A stretch of DNA of 64,000 nucleotides from Patescibacteria group bacterium. Lineage in GTDB: Bacteria > Patescibacteriota > Microgenomatia > UBA10105 > UBA927. The translations under genes and the position numbers were made by a program. The stretch covers positions 128,784 through 192,783 of the forward strand of contig JBMOPU010000033.1 in NCBI GenBank assembly GCA_049322955.1. Reading direction: 5' to 3'. Each line of letters opens with the position of its first letter. Position 1 is the first letter of the stretch. Of the stretch, positions 1,796 through 36,498 are shown one piece after another. Below the pieces are notes generated by a model. It was not told where the DNA came from and did not search any database. It saw nothing but the letters and a program-made list of their open reading frames with translations.

Positions 1796-2272
1796 ATGAG
1801 AACAAGCAAAACATACCATAAACTTCTTCCCGCCGATCCTATGTACGGCAATCGTCTCGTGTCACGATTTGTGAATCGCGTGATGATTGACGGAAAAAAG
1901 ACCGTTGCCGAGGGCCAGGTGTATAAAGCGCTTGATCTTATTAAGGCAAAGACCAACGATGATCCCATCAAAGTGTTCGAAAACGCGATCAATAACGTCG
2001 GGCCCAAAACGGAAGTAAAAGCACGTCGTGTCGGAGGAGCAAGTTATCAGGTTCCTATGGAAGTCCGCGGTGACCGACGCGTATCGCTTGCCATCCGTTG
2101 GATTGTCGAATTTGCCAAGAAACGAAGCAATCGTGAATTCCATACGTTTGCGGAAAAACTTGCGGCGGAGATATTGGATGCCGCAAACAATGTCGGAGAA
2201 GCGATTAAGAAGCGAGATACCGTACATCGTATGGCAGATGCAAACAAGGCGTTTGCCCACTTCCGATGGTAA
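1796..2272 (+). CDS. rpsG: 30S ribosomal protein S7
   Basis: S7-like sequence (…LVSRFVNRVMIDGKKTVAEGQVY…). Canonical str-operon position. Confidence 0.95.
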   Translation: MRTSKTYHKLLPADPMYGNRLVSRFVNRVMIDGKKTVAEGQVYKALDLIKAKTNDDPIKVFENAINNVGPKTEVKARRVGGASYQVPMEVRGDRRVSLAIRWIVEFAKKRSNREFHTFAEKLAAEILDAANNVGEAIKKRDTVHRMADANKAFAHFRW

Positions 2273-2871
2273 AGGATTCCCCGATCCACGCGCATTTTCA
2301 AAAAGTTGATCCTGTGCTTTATTCCCTGTTGCCGTCACGAGTCGTTCGGCTTGCGCCGAGTAACCCCCGTGAGTACTTTGTCAGCATGTGTCGTACCATT
2401 ATCGGACAACAACTGTCCACGACGGCGGCAGATACCATCTATGCACGATTTTGCGCGCTGTTCGGAAGAAGGCGCATCAGTCCCTCGGCCGTTTTGGCGC
2501 TTCCCGATGAAACACTCCGTAAGGTGGGTATGTCGTATGCCAAAATTCGCTTTATGAAAGACTGGGCGCAACGGGTGAATTCGGGTGATATCCCGCTTCC
2601 CGCGCTTTCGGCGATGGATAACGACGGTGTTATTGCGGTACTTACCAAAACAAAAGGAATCGGGAAGTGGACCGCTGAAATGTTTCTGATGTTCACGTTA
2701 GGGAGGGAAGACGTATTTTCGTTCGGTGATCTGGGGCTCAAACGGGCAATTCAGACGGCGTATAAATTGCGTCGCGAACCGTCTCTCCGCTTCATGGAAA
2801 AACTGAGCAGGCGATGGATGCCGTACAGAACCTACGCCGCTCTTGCGTTATGGGCGTTTAAGGATCGATAA
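2266..2871 (+). CDS. HhH-GPD DNA glycosylase, AlkA-like 3-methyladenine DNA glycosylase II core domain
   Basis: Contains the HhH motif followed by the Gly/Pro-rich loop and catalytic Asp (LTKTKGIGKWTAEMFLMF…FSFGDLGLKRA), typical of the AlkA/HhH-GPD family. It overlaps the rpsG stop by 7 nt. Confidence 0.7.
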   Translation: MVKDSPIHAHFQKVDPVLYSLLPSRVVRLAPSNPREYFVSMCRTIIGQQLSTTAADTIYARFCALFGRRRISPSAVLALPDETLRKVGMSYAKIRFMKDWAQRVNSGDIPLPALSAMDNDGVIAVLTKTKGIGKWTAEMFLMFTLGREDVFSFGDLGLKRAIQTAYKLRREPSLRFMEKLSRRWMPYRTYAALALWAFKDR

Positions 2872-2882
2872 TAGAAAGAGCT

Positions 2883-3269
2883 TTGAAATTATTCATTACC
2901 CTCGTTATCCTCGGTGTTCTGGGAATAGGTATCCGATACGGATTTCTGTTGCGACAAACAGCCCGCGCCTGTAACGCCGTGTATCAGGAATCACTCGATA
3001 CCATAGCCGCACAATCGCAAACCGTGCTCGCTGACAACAAAACCTCGTGTATTAACTCATACTCACTCCTCACCGAATGGGATGCCTGTCTTACGAAGGG
3101 AAAAGATGTTGTTCCCGATACGCTTCTTCCGGTCGTCGACCCCGTCGTTTCGAATGTCATGCTGTTTTTCCGCGAAAAACGAAAGGATATGACGGTACTC
3201 AAAAAGGAACACGATGTCCGGTGCAAAGGGTACACCGAGCTCATATTTTTCCCTCCTGATGCGGAGTGA
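2883..3269 (+). CDS. hypothetical membrane-anchored protein with an N-terminal TM helix and 4 Cys
   Basis: The ORF has a hydrophobic N-terminus and lies within a + strand gene run. No recognisable domain. Confidence 0.4.
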   Translation: MKLFITLVILGVLGIGIRYGFLLRQTARACNAVYQESLDTIAAQSQTVLADNKTSCINSYSLLTEWDACLTKGKDVVPDTLLPVVDPVVSNVMLFFREKRKDMTVLKKEHDVRCKGYTELIFFPPDAE

Positions 3270-3278
3270 AACGCGTCT

Positions 3279-3902
3279 ATGCAAGGCGGCTTACACAAAA
3301 TAACCGTGCAAAAGCCAAACAGAAAACGCCTCTTTATCGCCATACCAATAGAAGGCTCATGGCAGTCGGCTCTTGCCGCATTGCAAACGAAAGCTGAAGA
3401 ATCACATGCCACAAGTGCCGTGCCTACCCATTGGACACCGCCTCATCATTTTCATATCACCGTTCGGTTTGTCGGTACTGTCGATAAACGCTATATTCCG
3501 GGGATTATTGCGGCAATTCGTGTGCTCACCGGCAGGCATCGGACATTTTTGTTACCGTTTCACGGAATCGAATATGCGACCCGAAATGAACCAAAAATGA
3601 TATGGGCACGGTTTGCCAAAACCGCATCGTTCAACGGACTGGTTCGGGAAATGACGCGTCAGATTTCCCGTTTCCTGCAAACGCGCGGGGATGTCCGGTT
3701 ACTCCGGTCCGGCCATCGTGTTATTCCCCACGTAACGCTTGCCCGCGCGAAAGGCAATTTAACTGCTACGGGAATGCGTTCTCCCGATGCGGTGCGTCAT
3801 GATCTCCTTCTTCCCGTCACGTCGCTAGTTCTGTATGAATCGGTAAGCGAGCAAGGTCATACCGACTATAAAACGCTTGCAACGTTTCAATTACCTCGCT
3901 AA
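3279..3902 (+). CDS. 2H phosphoesterase, ThpR/LigT-like RNA 2',3'-cyclic phosphodiesterase (2'-5' RNA ligase family)
   Basis: Two H-x-T-x motifs (HHFHITVRF and PHVTLARA) at the spacing characteristic of the 2H/LigT family. Confidence 0.65.
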   Translation: MQGGLHKITVQKPNRKRLFIAIPIEGSWQSALAALQTKAEESHATSAVPTHWTPPHHFHITVRFVGTVDKRYIPGIIAAIRVLTGRHRTFLLPFHGIEYATRNEPKMIWARFAKTASFNGLVREMTRQISRFLQTRGDVRLLRSGHRVIPHVTLARAKGNLTATGMRSPDAVRHDLLLPVTSLVLYESVSEQGHTDYKTLATFQLPR

Positions 3903-3919
3903 GGCGGTACTATAGAAGC

Positions 3920-5128
3920 ATGAGGATCAAATATGCATTCCTCGTAGTTCTTTTTGCCGTTATTGCGTACGGCGCATGGTTTGTGTACACCAACCTGCGC
4001 GGGAGCGGTGCGGCGTTTGGTCCGATCCCGCAATTGCCGGAACAACCCGTAGAGCCGTCGGGGACGGCTCCCGGCAATACCACCGGTCTTCCGCTCACCC
4101 TGCCGCCGGGATTTTCACTTTCGGTATATGCAAAGAATCTCGGTGCGCCGCGGGTGCTTGCAGAGGATTCGACCGGGACAATCCTTACCAGTATTCCGTC
4201 ACAGAGCAAGGTGGTGGCATTACCGGATGCCGATAGTGACGGCGTAGCGGATACCGTGATCACGGTTGTCGAGGGACTTTCCCTTCCGCACGGTATCGCG
4301 TTTCATGACACACGGCTATATGTGGCCGAAACCGACGCGGTCTCTTCATATGCCTACGATCCGACGAACAAAAAAGCGACGGATAAAAAAAAGCTTTTTG
4401 ATCTTCCCGCGGGCGGGAATCATTTCTCGCGCTCGATAGGATTCGGTCCCGACGGAAAACTTTATGTTTCCATAGGCTCCAGCTGTAACGTCTGCGTGGA
4501 AAAGGATCCCCGAAGAGGAGCGATATTTGTTGCCAATGCGGACGGTTCGGATTTTCGTAGCTTCGCCACGGGATTACGAAATACGGTGTTTTTTACTTGG
4601 CATCCTCAAACAAATGAAATGTGGGGGACGGATATGGGGAGGGATCTTTTGGGAGACAACACGCCGTTTGAAGAAGTAAATATCATTAAAAACGGCGGCT
4701 TTTACGGTTGGCCGTATTGTTACAACAATAAAACGCATGACACGACCTTCGATGCAAGTACCAAAGCCAGGGAAAAATGCGAGGCAAGTATTTCGCCGCA
4801 TATAACATTTCAGGCACACTCGGCGCCGTTGGGTTTGGCGTTTATTCCCGACGAATGGCCTGCCGATTATCGGGGTGATCTGCTCGTAGCCTATCACGGA
4901 TCCTGGAACAGGAGTATGCCGACGGGATACAAAATCGTGCGATTTGATCTCGATGAACGTCAAATCGCCAAGACAGAAACCGATTTCATTGCAGGTTGGC
5001 TTGTGGGTGACGGCGCGCTCGGCAGGCCGGCAGGGCTGTTGTTCGGGCGTGATGCGGCACTCTATATAAGTGATGACAAGTCGGGGACGATCTACCGCAT
5101 GTTCCCCCGTTCGGCGGCAGGCAATTAA
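3920..5128 (+). CDS. PQQ-dependent sugar dehydrogenase (soluble glucose/sorbosone dehydrogenase-like beta-propeller), N-terminally membrane-anchored
   Basis: Signal/TM N-terminus. Motifs PHGIAFHD…LYVAET, GPDGKLYVSIGSSCNVC and GWPYCY are typical of the sGDH/L-sorbosone dehydrogenase family. Confidence 0.65.
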   Translation: MRIKYAFLVVLFAVIAYGAWFVYTNLRGSGAAFGPIPQLPEQPVEPSGTAPGNTTGLPLTLPPGFSLSVYAKNLGAPRVLAEDSTGTILTSIPSQSKVVALPDADSDGVADTVITVVEGLSLPHGIAFHDTRLYVAETDAVSSYAYDPTNKKATDKKKLFDLPAGGNHFSRSIGFGPDGKLYVSIGSSCNVCVEKDPRRGAIFVANADGSDFRSFATGLRNTVFFTWHPQTNEMWGTDMGRDLLGDNTPFEEVNIIKNGGFYGWPYCYNNKTHDTTFDASTKAREKCEASISPHITFQAHSAPLGLAFIPDEWPADYRGDLLVAYHGSWNRSMPTGYKIVRFDLDERQIAKTETDFIAGWLVGDGALGRPAGLLFGRDAALYISDDKSGTIYRMFPRSAAGN

Positions 5129-6835
5129 TTAGCCGAAGGTGAATGCATACAGCTCTATATCCCCGTCAAGAACTTCAAGCTTGAGGATATGTTTGCCTGC
5201 GCTTGGGAGTTTAATAAGCTTATATAACCGGTCGGTGGTTATCTTAACGTTACTTTGCTCAACATCTTCGCCTTTGAACTTCTCGGGGACGGGCACACCG
5301 TCAAGGAAAACGCGGATTCCCCCTTTGGCATCCTCCTTGGGTCGCATGACGAGGAACACCTCTTTTGCCTCAAAGTGATAGGTGAGGGTGGCTCCCGTCT
5401 GCGGCATTGCCCGTTCTCCGCCGATCGTCCATTTGCCCGTGAATGCAAAGCTGTTCCTGGGAAGGATTGCGGGTGCGGAAAATTCCGTGAGAATATCCGG
5501 CCGAACCGGTTCGGGAGAAACAATTCCCGCCATCCGTTCATACCCTAAGTAGGTTTCCGGTGATCTCGTCTCCACGCGGTACGTCGGATTTTCGATCTTT
5601 TCATCAACGGTAGATCCCGCTTCTTTAAGAAGCCTTTGGATCATCTCTTCCGTTTCATCATAGTCGCCCTCACCGAAATGCGTGTAGCGGATTTTTCCGT
5701 TTTTATCGATGAGGTACTTGGCCGGCCAATAACGGTTGGCATACGCCCGCCAGGTTTTATAGTCGTTATCCTGCATGATGGGGTACGTAAGTTCAAAATC
5801 AGCGGCCGCTTTTTTCACGTTATCAAGATCTTTTTCGAACTCGAATTCAGGCGTATGTACGCCGACGATAACAAGTCCCTTGTCTTTATACTTTTCATGC
5901 CATGACCGGATGTAGGGGAGCGTACGAATGCAGTTTATGCAGGTGTACGTCCAGAAATCGACCAGCACCACTTTGCCGCGCAACTCTTGCATGGTGAGGG
6001 GCGCGGAGTTTATCCACTCACCGCCGGCAATAAATTCAGGTGCGTTGCCGTAATTATTCTCTAACAGATCGGTCATCATAGATCCTCCTTTTTGTAAGTC
6101 TGTTAACCGGTTTCGTACCAGTGCATTATCTTCAAGTTGGGTAAGCCCCGTGCCGTATGCGGGAAATTTGTCCAATATAAACGTCTGAAACGCTCGATCC
6201 CAGGAATGATAAATGGCGAATGCGGTAAGGAGCATAAGGATACCGAATGCTTTCTGAATCCGTGCGGTATTTGCCAGTAACCAAGGGTGGTTGGTAAGCA
6301 GTGACCTGCCGCCCAAGGTGATGGCAAGGAGGGGAATTGCCGTCCCTAGGGCGTATGCAAGGGTGATGATGACCGCGTTAAGCCCTACGGTGCTGGTGGC
6401 GGCAAGTGTAATGATAGATGCAAGAATAGGACCGACGCAGGGTGTCCAGAGCAATCCCAAACTCACCCCGACCAATATGCCCGAGAGATACCCGTCAGTT
6501 TGTGTTTGTTTGGGGACAAATGAGGTCACTTTTGAGAAGAATTTTTCCATTGTAATCTGGAACGCCGGGACAAGCAAACTGACGCCGAAAAAGGCGATAA
6601 CAACGACGGCAACGAGCCGCAGGGTATCAGCGGGAAGACCCGTGCTCCGTACTATCGCGGAAAGAAAAAGGGTAAAGAAGGTAAAACTTGCGACAAACCC
6701 GGTGACCACCCCCAACGGCCGGCGTTTGCCTCCCGTGATACTTCCCGAAAGGACCACCGGGAGGATAGGGAGAATACACGGGGAAAGGATGGTAATGAGT
6801 CCGCCGAGAAATGCAAAGAAAATTAGGATAATCAT
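5129..6835 (-). CDS. dipZ: DipZ-like thiol:disulfide interchange protein with a CcdA/DsbD membrane domain, a thioredoxin-like (TlpA/ResA) domain and a C-terminal domain
   Basis: N-terminal polytopic CcdA-type domain with conserved Cys (LSPCILP…WTPCVGP). Thioredoxin fold with WTYTCINC. The C-terminal beta-rich domain matches the architecture of mycobacterial DipZ. Confidence 0.8.
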   Translation of the reverse strand: MIILIFFAFLGGLITILSPCILPILPVVLSGSITGGKRRPLGVVTGFVASFTFFTLFLSAIVRSTGLPADTLRLVAVVVIAFFGVSLLVPAFQITMEKFFSKVTSFVPKQTQTDGYLSGILVGVSLGLLWTPCVGPILASIITLAATSTVGLNAVIITLAYALGTAIPLLAITLGGRSLLTNHPWLLANTARIQKAFGILMLLTAFAIYHSWDRAFQTFILDKFPAYGTGLTQLEDNALVRNRLTDLQKGGSMMTDLLENNYGNAPEFIAGGEWINSAPLTMQELRGKVVLVDFWTYTCINCIRTLPYIRSWHEKYKDKGLVIVGVHTPEFEFEKDLDNVKKAAADFELTYPIMQDNDYKTWRAYANRYWPAKYLIDKNGKIRYTHFGEGDYDETEEMIQRLLKEAGSTVDEKIENPTYRVETRSPETYLGYERMAGIVSPEPVRPDILTEFSAPAILPRNSFAFTGKWTIGGERAMPQTGATLTYHFEAKEVFLVMRPKEDAKGGIRVFLDGVPVPEKFKGEDVEQSNVKITTDRLYKLIKLPSAGKHILKLEVLDGDIELYAFTFG

Positions 6836-6837
6836 AG

Positions 6838-7302
6838 TTATTTTACCTTCGCGATAAGTTCGTTAAGATCGCCGCCATTCCACTTTGTTACCGCGTTGCC
6901 GTATGCGTCCACCTGGACAAACGTATGTTGGTAGGTCACTTCGTACTTTTTCTTCAATTCAGTAGCGGTGTCATAATCGGTTTTAAACAGAACCACACCT
7001 TCGGGGATACGTGCCGCTTCTTTCTGGAATGCCGCATCGGCGGGTCGGCAAGTAGGGCACCACTGCGCATGGAAAAAGAGTACGCGTTTTTTGTCGGCCG
7101 CCGCATCAAATGACGGTTGGGAATAGGGTACGTAGCGTCCTGTTTTTTGCGAGGTGCCTACATCTTCCCCGTCAACGACGGGAGTGAGTACCGGTACAGG
7201 TGAGTCGTGTGCGGTATCGGGTGGCGTGCGTCGGGGAACAATATAGATGCCAACAGCAACGATGCTGACAAGTGCGGCCGCGACGATTATGTAATGTTTC
7301 AT
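6838..7302 (-). CDS. membrane-anchored thioredoxin-family protein (WCPTC active site)
   Basis: TM anchor plus thioredoxin fold with WCPTC. The stop abuts the dipZ start, which suggests an operon. Confidence 0.7.
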   Translation of the reverse strand: MKHYIIVAAALVSIVAVGIYIVPRRTPPDTAHDSPVPVLTPVVDGEDVGTSQKTGRYVPYSQPSFDAAADKKRVLFFHAQWCPTCRPADAAFQKEAARIPEGVVLFKTDYDTATELKKKYEVTYQHTFVQVDAYGNAVTKWNGGDLNELIAKVK

Positions 7303-7387
7303 ACAATAAGTGTAGAGAAGTTCGCCGGGCTAATCAAATCATATGAAGGCTTGACTATAACGTTACGTTATCGTTTAGTATCACGAT

Positions 7388-8131
7388 ATGGTCTATACGG
7401 TTAAACAATTAGCAACCCTTGCGGGTATAAGCATCCGCACACTCCATTATTATGACGACATCGGTTTGCTTAAACCGTCGTTCGTGCGGCAAAACGGTTA
7501 TCGGGTCTATGAAGAAAAAGAATTGGTCAAACTACAACAAATATTGTTGTTCCGTGAGCTTGCATTTCCGCTCGAACAGATAAAGGAAATGATATATGCA
7601 AAAAAATTTGATATGAAAGCGGCGCTTCGTGATCAGCGAAAAATGCTGGTAATGAAAAAGAATCGGATAAACAAATTATTGAGCGTTGTGGATGCACAAT
7701 TGAAAGGAGGTGAGCATATGGCAAATCAGCATTCCTTCGGCGTATTTACCGATACGACCATGGAAGAATTTAAAGAGGAAGCGCGCAAGCGATGGGGGAA
7801 TACCGATGCATACAAACAATCCGCAGAGCGCACGAAACACTGGACAAAAGCAGACTATGACAGGATCGCGGAGGAGGGCACGAAATTCACCGAAGCGCTC
7901 TCAAAGCTCATGGATCGGGGAATAGCGGATGAAAAAGTCCAGCAAATGATACAGAAGCATTATGATGGCATTCAGGTATTTTATGATTGTCCTATTGAGA
8001 TGTACAGGAATTTAGGAGCAATGTATGTCGAAGATTCTCGCTTTCGCGCGTATTACGAAAAGTTCCGCAAAGGTATGGCGGAATTTATGAAAAATGCTAT
8101 CGCGTATTATTGCGATAGCCGAATGACCTAA
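7388..8131 (+). CDS. MerR-family transcriptional regulator with a TipAS-like C-terminal effector domain
   Basis: N-terminal MerR HTH (VKQLATLAGISIRTLHYYDDIGLL…) plus a C-terminal TipAS-type domain. It is divergent from the trx-dipZ pair. Confidence 0.8.
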   Translation: MVYTVKQLATLAGISIRTLHYYDDIGLLKPSFVRQNGYRVYEEKELVKLQQILLFRELAFPLEQIKEMIYAKKFDMKAALRDQRKMLVMKKNRINKLLSVVDAQLKGGEHMANQHSFGVFTDTTMEEFKEEARKRWGNTDAYKQSAERTKHWTKADYDRIAEEGTKFTEALSKLMDRGIADEKVQQMIQKHYDGIQVFYDCPIEMYRNLGAMYVEDSRFRAYYEKFRKGMAEFMKNAIAYYCDSRMT

Positions 8132-8620
8132 GCGAAATTCTCCGGGGTGATACGTACGCCCCGGAGGATTCGGGGTGATACCCGTGTGCAGATGGTATGA
8201 AAAATCTTCTCCCGGCTGTTTTCGGTTACGGCCAAAAAAATCGCATAGTATTTAAACAAGGGAAAAAATTGCAAAATATGCAAGGAAAGCGTATAGTCAA
8301 CGCGTTATGGCGGCAGGAAAAGAGGATACGACAACAATAGATGCGGGGTGTGAATTTCTTCGTGGTCGGCAAATAGCTGATGTACAGGTGGAGGTCGTAG
8401 AACCGGTGCAAAAGGGAAGTTTGGGAAGATGTTTGGGTATGTGTCCCGATTGTCCGGCGTTACCAAGCAGAACGGTGACGTTTATTTCCGTAAGCAGGTT
8501 TCCCGCGTTAGGCATAGGAAACACGATTATCAAACCGGTGACCAGTGCGGAGACGGCATAGACAACCGGCATATTTTCTAGTACAATAATCTCCATAGAA
8601 GTGTTGAAGGAAATATTGGT

Positions 8621-8643
8621 CCCGCTTCGGCGGGTTTTTTTAT
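8621..8643 (+). terminator. GC-rich hairpin (cccgc-ttcg-gcggg) followed by a T-run, ending 4 nt before the fusA ATG
   Basis: Perfect 5-bp stem with a tetraloop, followed by TTTTTTTTATT. It is read directly from the sequence. No Shine-Dalgarno sequence lies between it and fusA. Confidence 0.5.
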
Positions 8644-8647
8644 TACT

Positions 8648-10750
8648 ATGGCAAATCCACAAACAACCGTAACAGAAAATCGCGACGTTCCTCTTGATAA
8701 GGTAAGAAACATCGGTATCATCGCGCACATTGACGCAGGAAAAACCACCACTACCGAGCGCATCCTTTTTTACACCGGACGAAGTTATAAGTTGGGCGAC
8801 ATTGACGAAGGCAACACTCAAATGGACTGGATGGAACAGGAACGGGAACGCGGCATTACCATCGTGTCCGCGGCGACCACCACCTTCTGGAAAGGCTTTC
8901 GTTTCAACATCATTGATACTCCCGGACACGTTGACTTTACCGCGGAAGTCGAGCGATCGCTTCGCGTGCTTGACGGCGGCATTACCGTCCTTGATGCGGA
9001 AGAAGGCGTACAATCACAGTCTGAAACCGTATGGCATCAGGCGGACAAATACAAGGTACCTCGTATCTGTTTTGTCAACAAAATGGATAAAATCGGAGCC
9101 GATTTCCGAAACACCATAAAACAGGTCGAAGAACGACTGGGTGCGCGTACCGCCGTTATGGTCGTTCCCATCGGACGCGAAAACACTTTCCGGGGAGCCG
9201 TTGATTTGTTGACCCGCGAAGCGCATGTGTGGAATACCGATGATTTGGGAGCAAACCCCGAGACAATCGAAATTCCCGAAGAGCTGAAAGCGGAAGTGGA
9301 AGAATCACGACATGCACTCATTGAACGCGTTGCGGAAACGGATGACGCATTGCTTGAGAAATATCTCGGCGGCGAAGACATCAGCGTCGAAGAGCTCAAG
9401 GCGGCGCTTCGTCGCGCCGTCATCGCCTACAAGCTTGTTCCGGTCTATTGCGGCACGAGTTTGAGAAACAAAGGGGTGCAACCGCTTCTTGATGCCGTCG
9501 TCGATTATCTTCCTTCGCCGCTTGATCTTCCCGAAGTGGAAGGAACCAACCCCAAGACGAACGAAAAGACGACAAGAAAACGCGTGAACGAAGAAAAGTT
9601 TGCCGGTTTGGCGTTTAAAATCCAGATTGATCCGCACGTCGGAAAACTTACCTACGTCCGTATTTATTCCGGAAAACTCGAATCGGGATCCTATGTCTAT
9701 AACTCCACCAAAGGAGCAAAGGAACGCGTCGGCCGGTTACTTCTCATGCATGCAAACCAACGGGAAGAAATCCGGGAAGCATATGCGGGAGAAATTGTCG
9801 GTGTCGTCGGCTTTAAAGATACGATTACCGGAGATACCATCTGTGATGATGCCAACCAGATCGTGTTAGAGCAGATTACCTTTCCGGAACCGGTTATTTC
9901 GTTGGCTATCGAGCCCAAGACCAAAAACGATCAGGAAAAGATGGGCTATGCCTTACAACGGTTAAGCGAAGAAGACCCGACATTTAAGATCAAATCCAAT
10001 CAGGAAACGAATCAGACCATTATCTGGGGTATGGGTGAGCTTCATCTCGAAATTCTCGTTGATCGCATGAAGCGGGAGTTTAAAGTCGAGGCAAATGTGG
10101 GCGCTCCTCAGGTTGCCTACAAGGAAACCATCAAGAAAATGGCTGAAGGAGAAGGAAAGTATATCCGACAAACCGGAGGTCGCGGTCAATACGGTCATGC
10201 AATGATCCGCATTGAGCCGAAAGCACGCGGCGAAGGATTTGAATTTATCGATGCTATCAAGGGAGGCGCGGTTCCCAACGAATTTATTCCTCCGATTGAA
10301 AAGGGTATTGTGGAAGCGATGGAAAACGGCGTGTTGGCGGGATATCCGCTGGTTGATATGTCCGCAACGCTGTATGACGGAAGTTATCATGATGTCGACT
10401 CTTCGGAAATGGCCTTTAAGATCGCGGGTTCCATGGCACTGCAGGATGCGGTAAAGCACGCGGATGCGACGATTCTCGAACCGATCATGAAGGTCGAGGT
10501 GACAACCCCCGACGAATACATGGGAGATTGTATCGGTGACCTTTCCGCGCGTCGTGCGCAGATCATGGGATCCGAACAGCGGGGAACCGTGACGGTGATT
10601 CTAGCCATGGTACCGCTTGCGGAATTGTCCGGATATGCCACGGTACTTCGTTCATTATCGAAAGGAAGAGCAACCTATTATATGGAGCCTTCCCACTATG
10701 AAGAGGTTCCGAAGAATATCCAGGAAAAGATTATTGCGAAGAACGTCTAA
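8648..10750 (+). CDS. fusA: elongation factor G
   Basis: GTP-binding motifs ([14 protein letters not shown]) and full-length EF-G similarity. Confidence 0.97.
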
Positions 10751-10839: not shown

Positions 10840-12027
10840 ATGGCAGATGCAGCCAAATTTGTTCGAAATAAGCCACATTTGAATATCGGAACCATCGGTC
10901 ACGTTGACCATGGAAAAACAACCCTTACCTCCGCAATCACGCACGTCCTTGCCAAAAAAGGCATGGCGAAAGCGATGAAATATGAGGAAATCGATAATGC
11001 ACCGGAAGAAAAGGCACGCGGAGTCACCATTAACATCCACCACTCCGAATACGAAACCGACAAACGGCACTATGCCCACATTGACGCCCCGGGACATGCT
11101 GATTATGTCAAGAACATGATCACCGGAGCCGCCCAAATGGACGGAGCCATCCTGGTGGTATCCGCTCCGGACGGTCCGATGCCGCAAACCCGCGAGCACA
11201 TTCTGCTTGCAAACCAAGTGAACGTTCCGGCCATCATCGTCTTCATGAACAAATGCGACATGGTGCAGGACAAAGAGCTTTTGGATCTTGTGGAGATGGA
11301 AGTCCGTGAACTTCTCACCAAATACAAGTATCCCGGAGACAAAATCCCGGTTATCCGCGGCTCAGCGCTCAAAGCATTGCAGGGCGATGCCGATGCGGAA
11401 AAAGCAATTGAAGAGCTCATGAAGACCGTCGATGAATACATCCCGGATCCCGTTCGTGAACTCGAAAAACCGTTCCTTATGCCGGTAGAGGACGTCTTCT
11501 CTATCAAAGGCCGAGGAACCGTCGTAACCGGAAGAGTTACCCGAGGAAAAGTGAAAGTCGGCGACACGATTGAAATCGTCGGTATCAAACCGTCACAGTC
11601 AACCGTGGTTACCGGAGTCGAAATGTTTAGGAAATCACTCGACGAAGGACTTGCCGGCGATAACATCGGCGTATTACTCCGCGGCGTTGAAAAAGAACAG
11701 GTAGAACGAGGCCAGGTGCTTTCAGCGGCCGGCTCCGTGAAACCGCACACCGAATTTGAAGCGGAAGTGTACGTGTTGACCAAAGAAGAAGGCGGACGAC
11801 ACACACCGTTCTTCACGGGATACCGACCGCAGTTCTATATCCAGACGACCGACGTAACCGGAGAAGTTGCCCTTCCCCAGGGAGTCGAAATGGTTATGCC
11901 TGGAGATAGTACCAAGATGAATGTCAAACTTATCGTACCCGTTGCCCTTGAAGAAGGACTTCGGTTCGCTATCCGCGAGGGTGGTCATACGGTAGGAGCG
12001 GGAGTTGTTACAAAGATTATCGCTTAA
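10840..12027 (+). CDS. tuf: elongation factor Tu
   Basis: [22 protein letters not shown]. An AAGGAGGG Shine-Dalgarno sequence lies upstream. Confidence 0.97.
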
Positions 12028-12069: not shown

Positions 12070-12378
12070 ATGCCAAAAGGTCGTATTCGTGTCAGATTAA
12101 AAGCATATGACAGCAGGATCGTTGATGACTGCTGTCAGAAGATACTCGATACCGCTGTAAGAACGGGTGCTCGGGTTGTGGGACCGGTTCCCCTTCCTAC
12201 CGACAAAACCCATTTTAACGTGGCGCGAGCGACATTTATCGACCGGAACAGCCGTGAGGACTTTATGATTAAAGTCCATAAGCGACTTATTGACATTGTG
12301 GAACCTACCGACAAGACCATTGATCAACTCATGCACTTGGATCTTCCGGCAGGAGTGGATATCGAGATTAAAATGTAA
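12070..12378 (+). CDS. rpsJ: 30S ribosomal protein S10
   Basis: MPKGRIRVRLKAYDSRIVD… is typical of S10. Confidence 0.95.
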   Translation: MPKGRIRVRLKAYDSRIVDDCCQKILDTAVRTGARVVGPVPLPTDKTHFNVARATFIDRNSREDFMIKVHKRLIDIVEPTDKTIDQLMHLDLPAGVDIEIKM

Positions 12379-12486
12379 TTTGAGTTTGCTGAGATACTCT
12401 GGTATACTAAGCATCTTGATATGACGCGACAAAGCGAAATATCGGAAGTGACCAAAAGTCTCGGATGAGCGTAATCCGCAAAGGGC

Positions 12487-12517
12487 GGAAAACGACCTCA
12501 ACCGAGGTCGTTTTTTT
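12487..12517 (+). terminator. intrinsic-terminator-like hairpin plus a U-run between rpsJ and rplC. It is a candidate attenuator.
   Basis: Stem gaaaacgacctc, loop aacc, then gaggtcgttttt followed by ttttg. It lies 14 nt upstream of the rplC ATG. Confidence 0.5.
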
Positions 12518-12530
12518 GTGGAATATTTAT

Positions 12531-13169
12531 ATGATAACTGCTTTACTCGGTAAAAAACTTGGACAATCGCAAGCCTTCGATGAGAACGGCAAGCGTATGC
12601 CGGTCACAAAAATTTTGGCGGGACCGAACTGGATTACCGAGGTTGAAGATAAGGAAAGCTTCAAAAGCGTTCAGCTCGGATTCGGTACCATCAAAAATCT
12701 CAGCAAGGCGGAAGCAGGACACTTAAAAAAGGCGGGGCTCGAAGACAAAAAGCTCCGCTTTTTACGTAGTTTTACGGTAGCGGAAATTGCCGAGACCGAA
12801 AAACCCGGTGCACAGGTGGCTGTTGACGCAATTTTTTCCGTCGGCGACATCATCCGCGTAACGGGGACGAGCAAGGGAAAAGGATTTGCCGGAGTGGTAA
12901 AGCGCCACAATTTTCGCGGCGGACCGCGCAGTCACGGTCAATCTGATCGAGAACGCGCACCCGGTTCCATCGGACAGACAACGACTCCGGGACGCGTGTA
13001 TAAAGGAAAGCGCATGGCGGGAAGAATGGGAAGCGATACCGTCACAATGAGAAATTTGAAAGTGGTCGCCGTTGATCCCGCAAGTCAGATTATCACGGTC
13101 AAAGGGCTGGTTCCCGGTTCGGTGAGCGGACTTGTCATCATCGCAAAAGAACCCGGTAAAAACAAATAA
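12531..13169 (+). CDS. rplC: 50S ribosomal protein L3
   Basis: The start MITALLGKKLGQSQAF is canonical for L3. The upstream in-frame ATG at 12465 would include the hairpin and was rejected. Confidence 0.9.
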   Translation: MITALLGKKLGQSQAFDENGKRMPVTKILAGPNWITEVEDKESFKSVQLGFGTIKNLSKAEAGHLKKAGLEDKKLRFLRSFTVAEIAETEKPGAQVAVDAIFSVGDIIRVTGTSKGKGFAGVVKRHNFRGGPRSHGQSDRERAPGSIGQTTTPGRVYKGKRMAGRMGSDTVTMRNLKVVAVDPASQIITVKGLVPGSVSGLVIIAKEPGKNK

Positions 13170-29884: not shown

Positions 29885-29938
29885 AAGAGTCTTCAACAAA
29901 TTCCCTCTCTAACTAAGAGGGAAGTTTGTTGTTATAAT

Positions 29939-36425: not shown

Positions 36426-36498
36426 TCGGGGCGACACGATTTGAACGTGCGACCACACGACCCCCAGCCGTGTGCTCTACCAACTGAGCTACGCCCCG
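36426..36498 (-). tRNA. tRNA-Pro (anticodon GGG)
   Basis: Hand-folded cloverleaf. Acceptor is C1-G72 with A73. D-arm is GCTC/GAGC. Anticodon stem is CACGG/TCGTG with loop CTGGGGG. T-arm is GCACG-TTCAAAT-CGTGT. The 3' CCA is not encoded. Confidence 0.85.

Follow-up and report, generated by a model that had tools for sequence, protein, structure and literature searches.

Analysis of a 64-kb stretch of DNA from a Candidatus Gottesmanbacteria genome (Microgenomates; candidate phyla radiation, CPR), comprising 64,000 nt of contig JBMOPU010000033.1 and hereafter called the window, showed that its str operon is interrupted between rpsG and fusA. Seven genes (2266–8131) and a 516-nt spacer part the two, leaving a gap of 6375 nt (2273–8647) according to the open reading frame (ORF) listing and profile searches. 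The arrangement is most probably explained by an old, lineage-wide chromosomal island that has long occupied this junction, is still being remodelled, and would function as three or four separate units of expression; under this explanation it is neither a mobile element nor a recent acquisition. In order, the inserted genes encode an AlkA-type HhH-GPD DNA glycosylase, a membrane-anchored hypothetical protein of 128 aa with four cysteines (hyp128), a ThpR/LigT 2H phosphoesterase, a glucose/sorbosone dehydrogenase (GSDH)-type protein, DipZ, an exported thioredoxin (Trx), and a TipA-class regulator of the MerR family, and these identities, already proposed in the initial annotation, were all upheld by the ORF listing and the profile searches. 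Gene identities, synteny, sequence conservation, and hairpin stability were observed directly, and the expression units built on them are presented below as predictions.

The rpsG–fusA junction in related genomes

The two genes had been described beforehand as almost universally contiguous, which was borne out in a sample of 80 genomes retrieved with rpsG: fusA lay within 700 nt of rpsG at 68 of the 75 informative loci (median 74 nt), and all 7 exceptions were close CPR relatives of the window. Contiguity or near contiguity was also found at the Microgenomates-type loci L005, L006, L009, L015, and L021, and different insertions, smaller or larger, were present at the more distant Microgenomates-type loci L007, L008, L010, and L019. 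The comparison supported the view that the interruption is a derived state, whether the reference is other bacteria or the several other Microgenomates-type CPR genomes with contiguous rpsG and fusA. Several of the metagenome-assembled genome records used here (L001, L004, L005, L007–L010, L015, and L021) are titled ‘uncultured Gammaproteobacteria’ or ‘Pseudomonadales’; the rpoC, rpsL, rpsG, fusA, and tuf genes of these records were closest to Gottesmanbacteria/Microgenomates, and the labels look wrong.

The closest relatives of elongation factor G (EF-G) and of rpsG from the window were named Candidatus Gottesmanbacteria or Patescibacteria. All 12 Gottesmanbacteria relatives examined had an island between rpsG and fusA, measuring 4.7–11.3 kb at the 11 loci where its size could be determined and more than 10 kb at the other (L004). 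The gap was 7.3 kb in L091, whose EF-G is 100% identical to that of the window, 7.1 kb in L179 (98%), 7.4 kb in L096 (93%), 7.6 and 9.5 kb in L097 and L093, respectively (both 90%), 4.7 kb in L181 (89%), 6.2 kb in L182 (84%), and 6.0, 6.1, and 11.3 kb in L003, L108, and L001/L098, respectively (all 83%). One more locus, L095, encoded a MerR protein 82% identical to that of the window on a contig that stops short of fusA. The gene order is thus shared by related genomes, which the initial annotation had named as grounds for rejecting an insertion; the arrangement goes back to an ancestor at the level of the genus or family and is not a recent insertion in this genome.

The islands of these relatives draw on an overlapping gene pool that includes the HhH-GPD glycosylase (usually the first gene after rpsG), hyp128, LigT, GSDH, DipZ with or without Trx, and TipA. 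The glycosylase gene lay directly 3′ of rpsG in L001, L002, L004, L091, L093, L096, L099, L105, L179, and L181, and was separated from it by one extra gene or ORF in L095, L097, and L108. Also recurrent was a small membrane protein with an XRE-type helix-turn-helix (HTH) partner. Further genes found in the relatives’ islands coded for Cdd1-like, deaminase, CYTH, DUF2130, PGA_cap, and flavodoxin proteins, a CvpA-CAP fusion, an MGMT-like domain, an AP_endonuc_2-family protein (the family includes endonuclease IV), and a PD-(D/E)XK nuclease. A metagenome scan with an HhH-GPD alignment yielded, among the matches listed, mostly unrelated contexts at 40–48% identity; L099, L105, and L108 were informative.

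The composition of the island matched that of its surroundings. The G+C content at third codon positions (GC3) was 0.535 for the island, 0.532 for the core genes, and 0.518 for the rest of the window, and the codon-usage distance between island and rest (0.062) was smaller than that between core genes and rest (0.088), so that the comparison of codon usage with the flanks suggested in the initial annotation gave no sign of foreign origin. Integrase, transposase, and recombinase domains were absent from the seven proteins in the profile searches and from the relatives’ islands. Flanking repeats were not found around the island, and the sole tRNA of the window lies at 36426–36498. A search for defence systems with PADLOC returned nothing relevant, just generic HTH and deaminase-domain matches.

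Compared with the canonical Escherichia coli-type str operon (rpsL-rpsG-fusA-tufA), the window keeps all four genes with unchanged order and strand; rpsJ comes next, and the window then continues into the S10/spc/alpha array of ribosomal-protein genes. All five genes are on the plus strand: rpsL (1349–1786; TIGR00981, 195.6 bits), rpsG (1796–2272; TIGR01029, 204.4 bits), fusA (8648–10750; TIGR00484, 1094.5 bits), and tuf (10840–12027) and rpsJ (12070–12378), the last two assigned from tblastn and gene tables. The differences are the 6.4 kb between rpsG and fusA, vs. the median of 74 nt elsewhere, a fusA gene with its own predicted promoter and leader, rpsJ directly after tuf, and a leader before rplC instead of rpsJ. 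Furthermore, the C-terminal part of rpoC is encoded at 19–1344 and rpsL starts only 4 nt beyond it, so rpsL-rpsG forms the tail of an rpoBC-rpsL-rpsG unit. The rpsL product has 145 aa, and its match to the 124-position bacterial S12 model covers residues 1–136, which therefore corresponds to an insertion of approximately 13 residues; this insertion is common to the closest relatives (144–145 aa there too).

Multigene insertions between concatenated transcription and translation operons have been described in Proteobacteria (Brandis, Cao and Hughes, 2019; PMC6735719). As in those cases, accessory genes are located in the conserved rpoBC-str-S10-spc-alpha region and have been retained for a long time. 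The Proteobacterial insertions lie between operons, whereas the one studied here interrupts the str operon itself, separating rpsG from fusA, characterises an entire CPR lineage, and is accompanied by a newly gained internal promoter (as predicted from sequence) and leader. The case is thus one of a known kind of event, i.e., a multigene insertion in a conserved translation-gene region, accompanied by a compensating promoter and leader, and represents fairly ordinary operon splitting.

Predicted promoter and leader upstream of fusA

Separated by the island from the promoters further upstream, the fusA-tuf-rpsJ block would be expected to have a promoter of its own, and a predicted sigma-70-type promoter was located on the plus strand at 8559–8587. 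Its sequence, TAGACA-17 nt-TACAAT, scores 10/12, and the 64-kb window contains just a single further match to the motif. The motif sits 33 nt upstream of a hairpin, and the leader (8603–8647) consists of a TTGAAG box (8603–8608), the hairpin itself, CCCGC-TTCG-GCGGG (8621–8634; −9.4 kcal/mol), a run of seven T (8635–8641), and the hexanucleotide ATTACT preceding the ATG. The hairpin and T-run reported in the initial annotation are therefore real, and the distance to the ATG is 6 nt rather than the 4 nt given there. Strong intergenic terminator-like sites on the plus strand of the window were limited to this hairpin and one before rplC.

The same layout was found in relatives. The motif T(A/G)GACA-N17-TA(C/T/G)AAT was present upstream of fusA in L091, L179, L093, L096, L097, L098, L108, L181, and L182, and at all nine loci a short leader containing a TTGAA(G) box came next, then a GC hairpin with at least five T behind it, and, after another 5–30 nt, the ATG. 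In L003, a −10 element (TACAAT) could be recognised, the −35 element could not, and hairpin and T-run were followed by the ATG approximately 70 nt further on; the layout in L007 was similar. At least four of the stem sequences are unrelated to each other (CCCGC/GCGGG, GCTTCCC/GGGGAGC, CTGCTTCG/CGAAGCAG, and GGCTATGC/GCGTAGCC). In folds of individual sequences, the hairpin energies ranged from −9.4 kcal/mol in the window to −15.4 kcal/mol, with −10.3 to −15.4 kcal/mol in the seven relatives folded. With the promoter motif and hairpin recurring in all 10 further Gottesmanbacteria loci read, the earlier suggestion that fusA-tuf is re-initiated from an internal promoter appears very probable.

A second leader of this type was recognised in the rpsJ–rplC spacer (12379–12530) and is also present in L093, L096, L097, L098, L003, L108, L181, and L182. 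It contains the boxes GAGATACTYTGG(TATACT) and CCAAAAGTCTCGGATGA, which are able to pair around a variable insert, and ends in the hairpin CGACCTC-AACC-GAGGTCG with a run of seven T (12494–12517), which leaves 13 nt to the true start codon of rplC (ATG at 12531); the mechanically predicted ORF, with its start at 12465, probably begins at the wrong codon. In L096, L108, and L182, the sequence of this hairpin differs. This leader is a candidate ribosomal-protein attenuator, with L3 or L4 as conceivable effectors. It resembles the S10-operon leader of E. coli, which is subject to L4-mediated attenuation, in being a conserved leader that ends in a terminator hairpin before a block including rplD, and differs in its position between rpsJ and rplC rather than before rpsJ and in showing no sequence similarity and no Rfam match. 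Across the window, only a tRNA reached the Rfam gathering score, and scans of 7250–8750 and 12330–12580 gave just noise (E ≥ 1).

Other signals near translation genes of the window were noted. Upstream of infA (29900–29938), the hairpin TTCCCTCT-N8-AGAGGGAA is followed by GTTTGTTGTT and TATAAT directly before the ATG, making this the third site in the window where a hairpin and a T-rich tract immediately precede a translation gene. Most genes of the window are without a Shine-Dalgarno sequence and have an A/T-rich stretch, such as ATAACT or AATACT, directly before the ATG (e.g., at 1349, 1796, 5129–6835 on the minus strand, 13172, 30698, and 31073). Strong Shine-Dalgarno sequences were seen at tuf (AAGGAGGG) and at an internal start within the TipA-class gene discussed below.

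The fusA leader could be more than a constitutive, partial terminator, namely a regulated attenuator (riboregulator) in which a terminator/antiterminator switch responds to a protein or small-molecule signal, e.g., ribosomal protein S7; we consider this possible, though doubtful. A GAAGCA box able to pair with UGCUUC in the 5′ arm of the terminator is present in L093, L096, L097, L098, L181, and L003, and in these six relatives that pairing and the terminator are mutually exclusive. The conserved terminator-bearing leader before rplC points in the same direction, and there is a precedent in the regulation proposed for rpsL and fusA leaders of other bacteria. Shared with these leaders are a terminator hairpin and T-stretch directly upstream of fusA, and a possible antiterminator in some of the relatives studied here; there is no similarity in sequence, and in the present case the leader follows a dedicated promoter behind a multi-kb island, with a window copy that is without the antiterminator. 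The alternative pairing is indeed absent from the leaders of L091, L179, and the window itself, thermodynamics favours the terminator in the relatives’ leaders, the covariation evidence is informal, and neither a conserved structure resembling a ligand pocket nor an Rfam match was found. By extension, the fusA and rplC leaders might tentatively be regarded as undescribed cis-regulatory RNA attenuators by which, once the str operon had been split, the production of ribosomal proteins and translation factors came to be controlled, a proposal to which we give a low likelihood. Conceivable signals are ribosomal proteins (S7, L4), Nus factors, and alarmones.

A less favoured explanation is that hairpin and T-run are simply the terminator of merR, with or without a small ORF in the spacer (ORF84; 84 aa, plus strand, 8307–8561), that the promoter match is fortuitous, and that fusA is expressed by read-through only. 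The hairpin has a canonical terminator shape and lies 60 nt past the ORF84 stop, and promoter-like matches in the region (14) were no more frequent than expected from shuffled sequence (13.7). However, the motif lies at a fixed short distance before the hairpin in nine further loci in which the upstream sequence is unrelated. In L096, promoter and hairpin are both present despite an upstream neighbour on the opposite strand, so there the hairpin is not the terminator of the upstream gene. Moreover, an efficient hairpin without a promoter would leave the essential genes fusA and tuf untranscribed. This explanation was consequently judged improbable, and a dedicated fusA promoter remained the preferred reading.

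Sequence divergence added to the evidence for that promoter and leader without settling it. Between the window and L091, 10 of the 298 sites of 8350–8647 differ (3.4%), and four-fold sites in the flanking TipAS domain and fusA differ by 0.18, which suggests constraint on this segment, though inconclusively.

Several observations weigh against the reading of an ancient island with a dedicated fusA promoter and leader, or limit it. Divergence at four-fold sites is mosaic along the locus (0.02–0.04 in tuf, rpsJ, and hyp128 vs. 0.18 in fusA), and because of this the low divergence of 8350–8647 could in part reflect a recombination tract. Neither the whole spacer (z = −0.07) nor the complete conserved stretch of 311 nt folds better than shuffled sequence, and RNAalifold gave no consensus structure on a MAFFT alignment of the leaders, because hairpins of differing length were not aligned in register. 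A terminator placed behind the block’s own promoter would also halt fusA transcripts, and the window leader has no evident antiterminator. The relatives compared amounted to about a dozen loci that were not picked from a phylogeny. Finally, co-transcription of the first four island genes, activity of the predicted promoters, and termination efficiency of the hairpin are all inferred from sequence.

The TipA-class gene and the other island genes

The regulator gene next to the spacer (7388–8131, plus strand) encodes a protein of 247 aa with an N-terminal MerR-type HTH domain (PF13411/PF00376, residues 3–70) and a C-terminal TipAS domain (PF07739, residues 128–241, E = 3.1e-34). Its predicted MerR-type promoter (7351–7381, plus strand) consists of TTGACT (7351–7356), a 19-nt spacer, and TAGTAT (7376–7381), with the dyad ATAACG-TTA-CGTTAT (7357–7371) inside the spacer; since just 6 nt lie between the −10 element and the ATG, the mRNA would be leaderless or nearly so. 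Promoter and dyad are kept in seven loci, and in L091 both arms of the dyad have changed with retention of symmetry (ATGACG-CAA-CGTCAT). An in-frame internal ATG at 7718 (Met111), located 3–5 nt behind AAAGGAGGTGA and kept in seven loci, predicts a short TipAS form of 137 aa. By sequence, the gene has the features of the TipA class: an HTH and a TipAS domain, an over-long promoter spacer with a dyad, and a second in-frame start. TipA-class MerR regulators have been described as a minimal autoregulated multidrug-resistance system with a two-product layout (PMC7762955). The likeness to TipAL/TipAS of Streptomyces lividans, SkgA, and Mta extends to the HTH and TipAS domains, the 19-nt-spacer promoter with its dyad, and the internal start; the gene of the window differs in its occurrence in a CPR bacterium, its position directly upstream of fusA, and its apparently leaderless mRNA.

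The putative operator in its own promoter, the two-start layout, and the absence or separation of the gene in relatives argue for a self-contained module and not for a regulator of the island. The MerR gene is missing from L096, L004, L108, and L181, which keep the HhH-GPD and DipZ genes (and, in three of them, GSDH), and trx and merR are parted by other genes in L084, L091, L093, L097, and L179. Homologues of the TipA class that are approximately 55–60% identical, one of them labelled Ktedonobacteraceae, and presence in only part of the clade suggest that this gene alone was perhaps acquired horizontally. Between the window and L091 (10001–10744), the DNA-binding half of the tipA-like gene differs at 28.5% of nucleotides and the TipAS half at 7.2%, with the switch near the internal start; such mosaic divergence suggests intragenic recombination or separate evolution of the two products. 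Immediately past the merR stop lies a GC-rich hairpin of 8 bp without a T-run (8140–8166, plus strand; CTCCGGGG-N11-CCCCGGAG), which carries a G>A plus C>T double change with intact pairing in L179 and is deleted in L091. Transcription of merR may end at this hairpin. In the same region, two copies of CGGGGTGATAC (8143–8153 and 8171–8181) form a direct repeat.

These properties bear on the initial proposal of a stress island embedded in a constitutively transcribed operon, taken here to mean an island that was recently inserted, horizontally acquired, and co-regulated by the divergent MerR/TipA regulator. Part of it stood: the content has a flavour of repair and thiol redox, and genes of both kinds recur in the relatives’ islands. 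Horizontal gain is also suggested for the TipA-class gene, although for that gene alone, and island content varies between species and even between strains. The remainder did not stand, as the gene order is common to related species and genera, the composition is native, mobility genes and repeats are absent, and the putative MerR operator, whose dyad shows compensatory changes, is part of the promoter of merR itself, a gene that is lacking from four relatives and displaced from trx in five. As a whole, this explanation was considered quite unlikely. An assembly chimera, with the island placed between rpsG and fusA by a false join during metagenome binning or assembly, has nothing in its favour except the unusual gene order and is extremely improbable, because 10 contigs from different sequencing runs (fetched from 23 independent contigs that were read after an exact-protein look-up of the identical MerR protein) are 98–100% identical to the window and keep the same order, long contigs from related species, the largest of 1.29 Mb, contain these junctions too, and the HhH-GPD gene overlaps rpsG by 7 nt.

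The first four island genes are all on the plus strand and closely spaced. The start of the HhH-GPD gene (2266–2871) overlaps the rpsG stop in ATGGTAA, because of which the gene is probably co-transcribed and translationally coupled with rpsG; the next three spacers measure 11, 9, and 17 nt. Between these genes, neither terminator-like sites nor promoter-like sites above chance were found, and they would most likely form an extension of the rpoBC-rpsL-rpsG transcription unit. The glycosylase (PF00730, E = 2.5e-13) has a GIG hairpin with G131 and G133, and these residues and D155 are invariant in nine orthologues. We take D155 to be the equivalent of AlkA Asp238, also from the span of the PRK10308 alignment (residues 112–273). 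The predicted protein thereby combines the helix-hairpin-helix, the Gly/Pro-rich loop, and the catalytic Asp of an AlkA-type glycosylase. The hyp128 protein (2883–3269) had no matches in Pfam, NCBIfam, or PADLOC; its cysteines C30, C56, C69, and C114 are invariant in six orthologues, and it is probably an extracytoplasmic, disulfide-containing protein.

The ThpR/LigT protein, a 2H phosphoesterase of the RNA 2′,3′-cyclic phosphodiesterase type (3279–3902; TIGR02258, 76.6 bits vs. a cut-off of 65.7), carries both H-x-T motifs (H59-I-T-V and H151-V-T-L). The GSDH-type beta-propeller (3920–5128; PF07995, E = 7.6e-19) has a hydrophobic N-terminal anchor and belongs to the soluble PQQ-type sugar dehydrogenases, but was assigned at the family level only, because it scores 41 bits vs. 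the cut-off of 434 for the subfamily model TIGR03606. Its stop (5128, plus strand) abuts that of dipZ (5129, minus strand) in a convergent arrangement without spacer or terminator, so transcription from rpsG, if it continues, would run antisense through dipZ-trx.

Both dipZ (5129–6835) and trx (6838–7302) are encoded on the minus strand. DipZ comprises a CcdA/DsbD membrane domain, a TlpA/ResA-like thioredoxin domain, and a Thioredoxin_10 domain (PF02683, PF00578, and PF17991), with cysteines C20 and C133 in the membrane domain and a CINC motif at 299–302. By sequence it is a DsbD/CcdA-thioredoxin fusion, with two membrane cysteines and a CxxC thioredoxin fold. The adjacent exported thioredoxin (PF00085) has the active-site motif WCPTC. 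A predicted promoter of trx, read from the sequence (7309–7337, minus strand), consists of TTGATT (7337–7332), 17 nt, and TACACT (7314–7309), of which the −10-like element ends 6 nt ahead of the ATG in a leaderless-type layout. The pair resembles DsbD/CcdA-family systems of reductant transfer in the fusion of a two-Cys CcdA-like membrane domain to a CxxC thioredoxin fold and in the adjacent secreted thioredoxin, and differs in that no cytochrome c maturation genes are nearby. As far as can be inferred, DipZ/Trx might have hyp128 and the anchored GSDH-type protein, both encoded nearby, as clients.

Strains of the same species differ around trx. In L084, L085, L087, and L089, approximately 920 bp (compared as L084:7764–8682) take the place of 217 bp in the window (7128–7344) and encode an alternative Trx N-terminus (169 vs. 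154 aa), a multi-pass membrane protein of 124 aa, and an HTH_3 protein of 78 aa. Because this pair is present in L091, L093, L096, L097, and L179, the strain of the window has most likely lost it. A toxin–antitoxin reading of the pair was rejected: searches yielded only weak DUF2178 and Acyl_transf_3 matches beside the XRE-type HTH partner, and no evidence for a toxin.

The 516-nt spacer had been described as non-coding, which is not clearly the case. ORF84 is intact at 84 aa in three lineages (window, L091, and L179) and shows coding-like substitutions: between the window and L179 its frame has 19 synonymous to 19 non-synonymous codon changes, the codon-aligned antisense frame 18:20, and the remaining four frames 4–8 synonymous to 32–34 non-synonymous. 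Its stop codon doubles as the initial TAG of the predicted −35 hexamer of fusA. Homologues beyond the genus and a Pfam family were not found, and ORF84 may be a genus-specific small protein.

Other candidates for the spacer were rejected. An ORF of 50 aa in frame 0 (8429–8581) had four of four early changes synonymous relative to L091, but has a GTG start and an in-frame TAG in L179. A minus-strand ORF (8572–8297) shares the codon-aligned frame of ORF84 and is cut short in L179; an exhaustive HMMER search for its homologues gave just multi-stretch matches to repeat-like or spurious proteins (e.g., P0244), with pairwise E values no better than 0.005–0.02. Descent of the spacer from a decayed Cdd1/deaminase gene, which is located there in L093, L095, L097, and L181, was not supported, as tblastn showed no similarity to it, nor to the ORFs of the relatives’ islands.

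Expression model and significance

In the proposed model, the genes for HhH-GPD, the 4-Cys protein, ThpR, and GSDH would ride on transcription of rpoBC-rpsL-rpsG. The trx-dipZ pair, for which a separate promoter-like site is present, would transfer reductant through the membrane to thiols on its extracytoplasmic side, as the domains suggest. The MerR gene would regulate itself through the dyad in its promoter, and the internal start would yield a sequestering TipAS form. Transcription of fusA-tuf-rpsJ would start from its own promoter, with the leader hairpin and U7 most likely acting as a partial terminator or attenuator; such a leader would insulate fusA from transcription of the island and set the level of EF-G and elongation factor Tu (EF-Tu).

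Thiopeptides block the binding of EF-G and EF-Tu to the ribosome. The position of a TipA-like gene adjoining the genes for these two factors may be a coincidence; in a bolder version of the model, a drug sensor of the TipA class upstream of fusA could couple the sensing of ribosome-targeting antibiotics to the expression of EF-G and EF-Tu.

None of these findings overturns current understanding. They provide a clean natural example of a highly conserved bacterial operon that has been split and has stayed split, with accessory genes piggy-backing on rpsG, and gene content at the rpsG–fusA junction has kept turning over for a long time, to the point of varying among strains. A complete drug-sensing module of the TipA type is encoded in a CPR bacterium. 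The parts most worth following up are the two conserved candidate RNA leaders, upstream of fusA and rplC, in a phylum in which gene regulation is almost unstudied.

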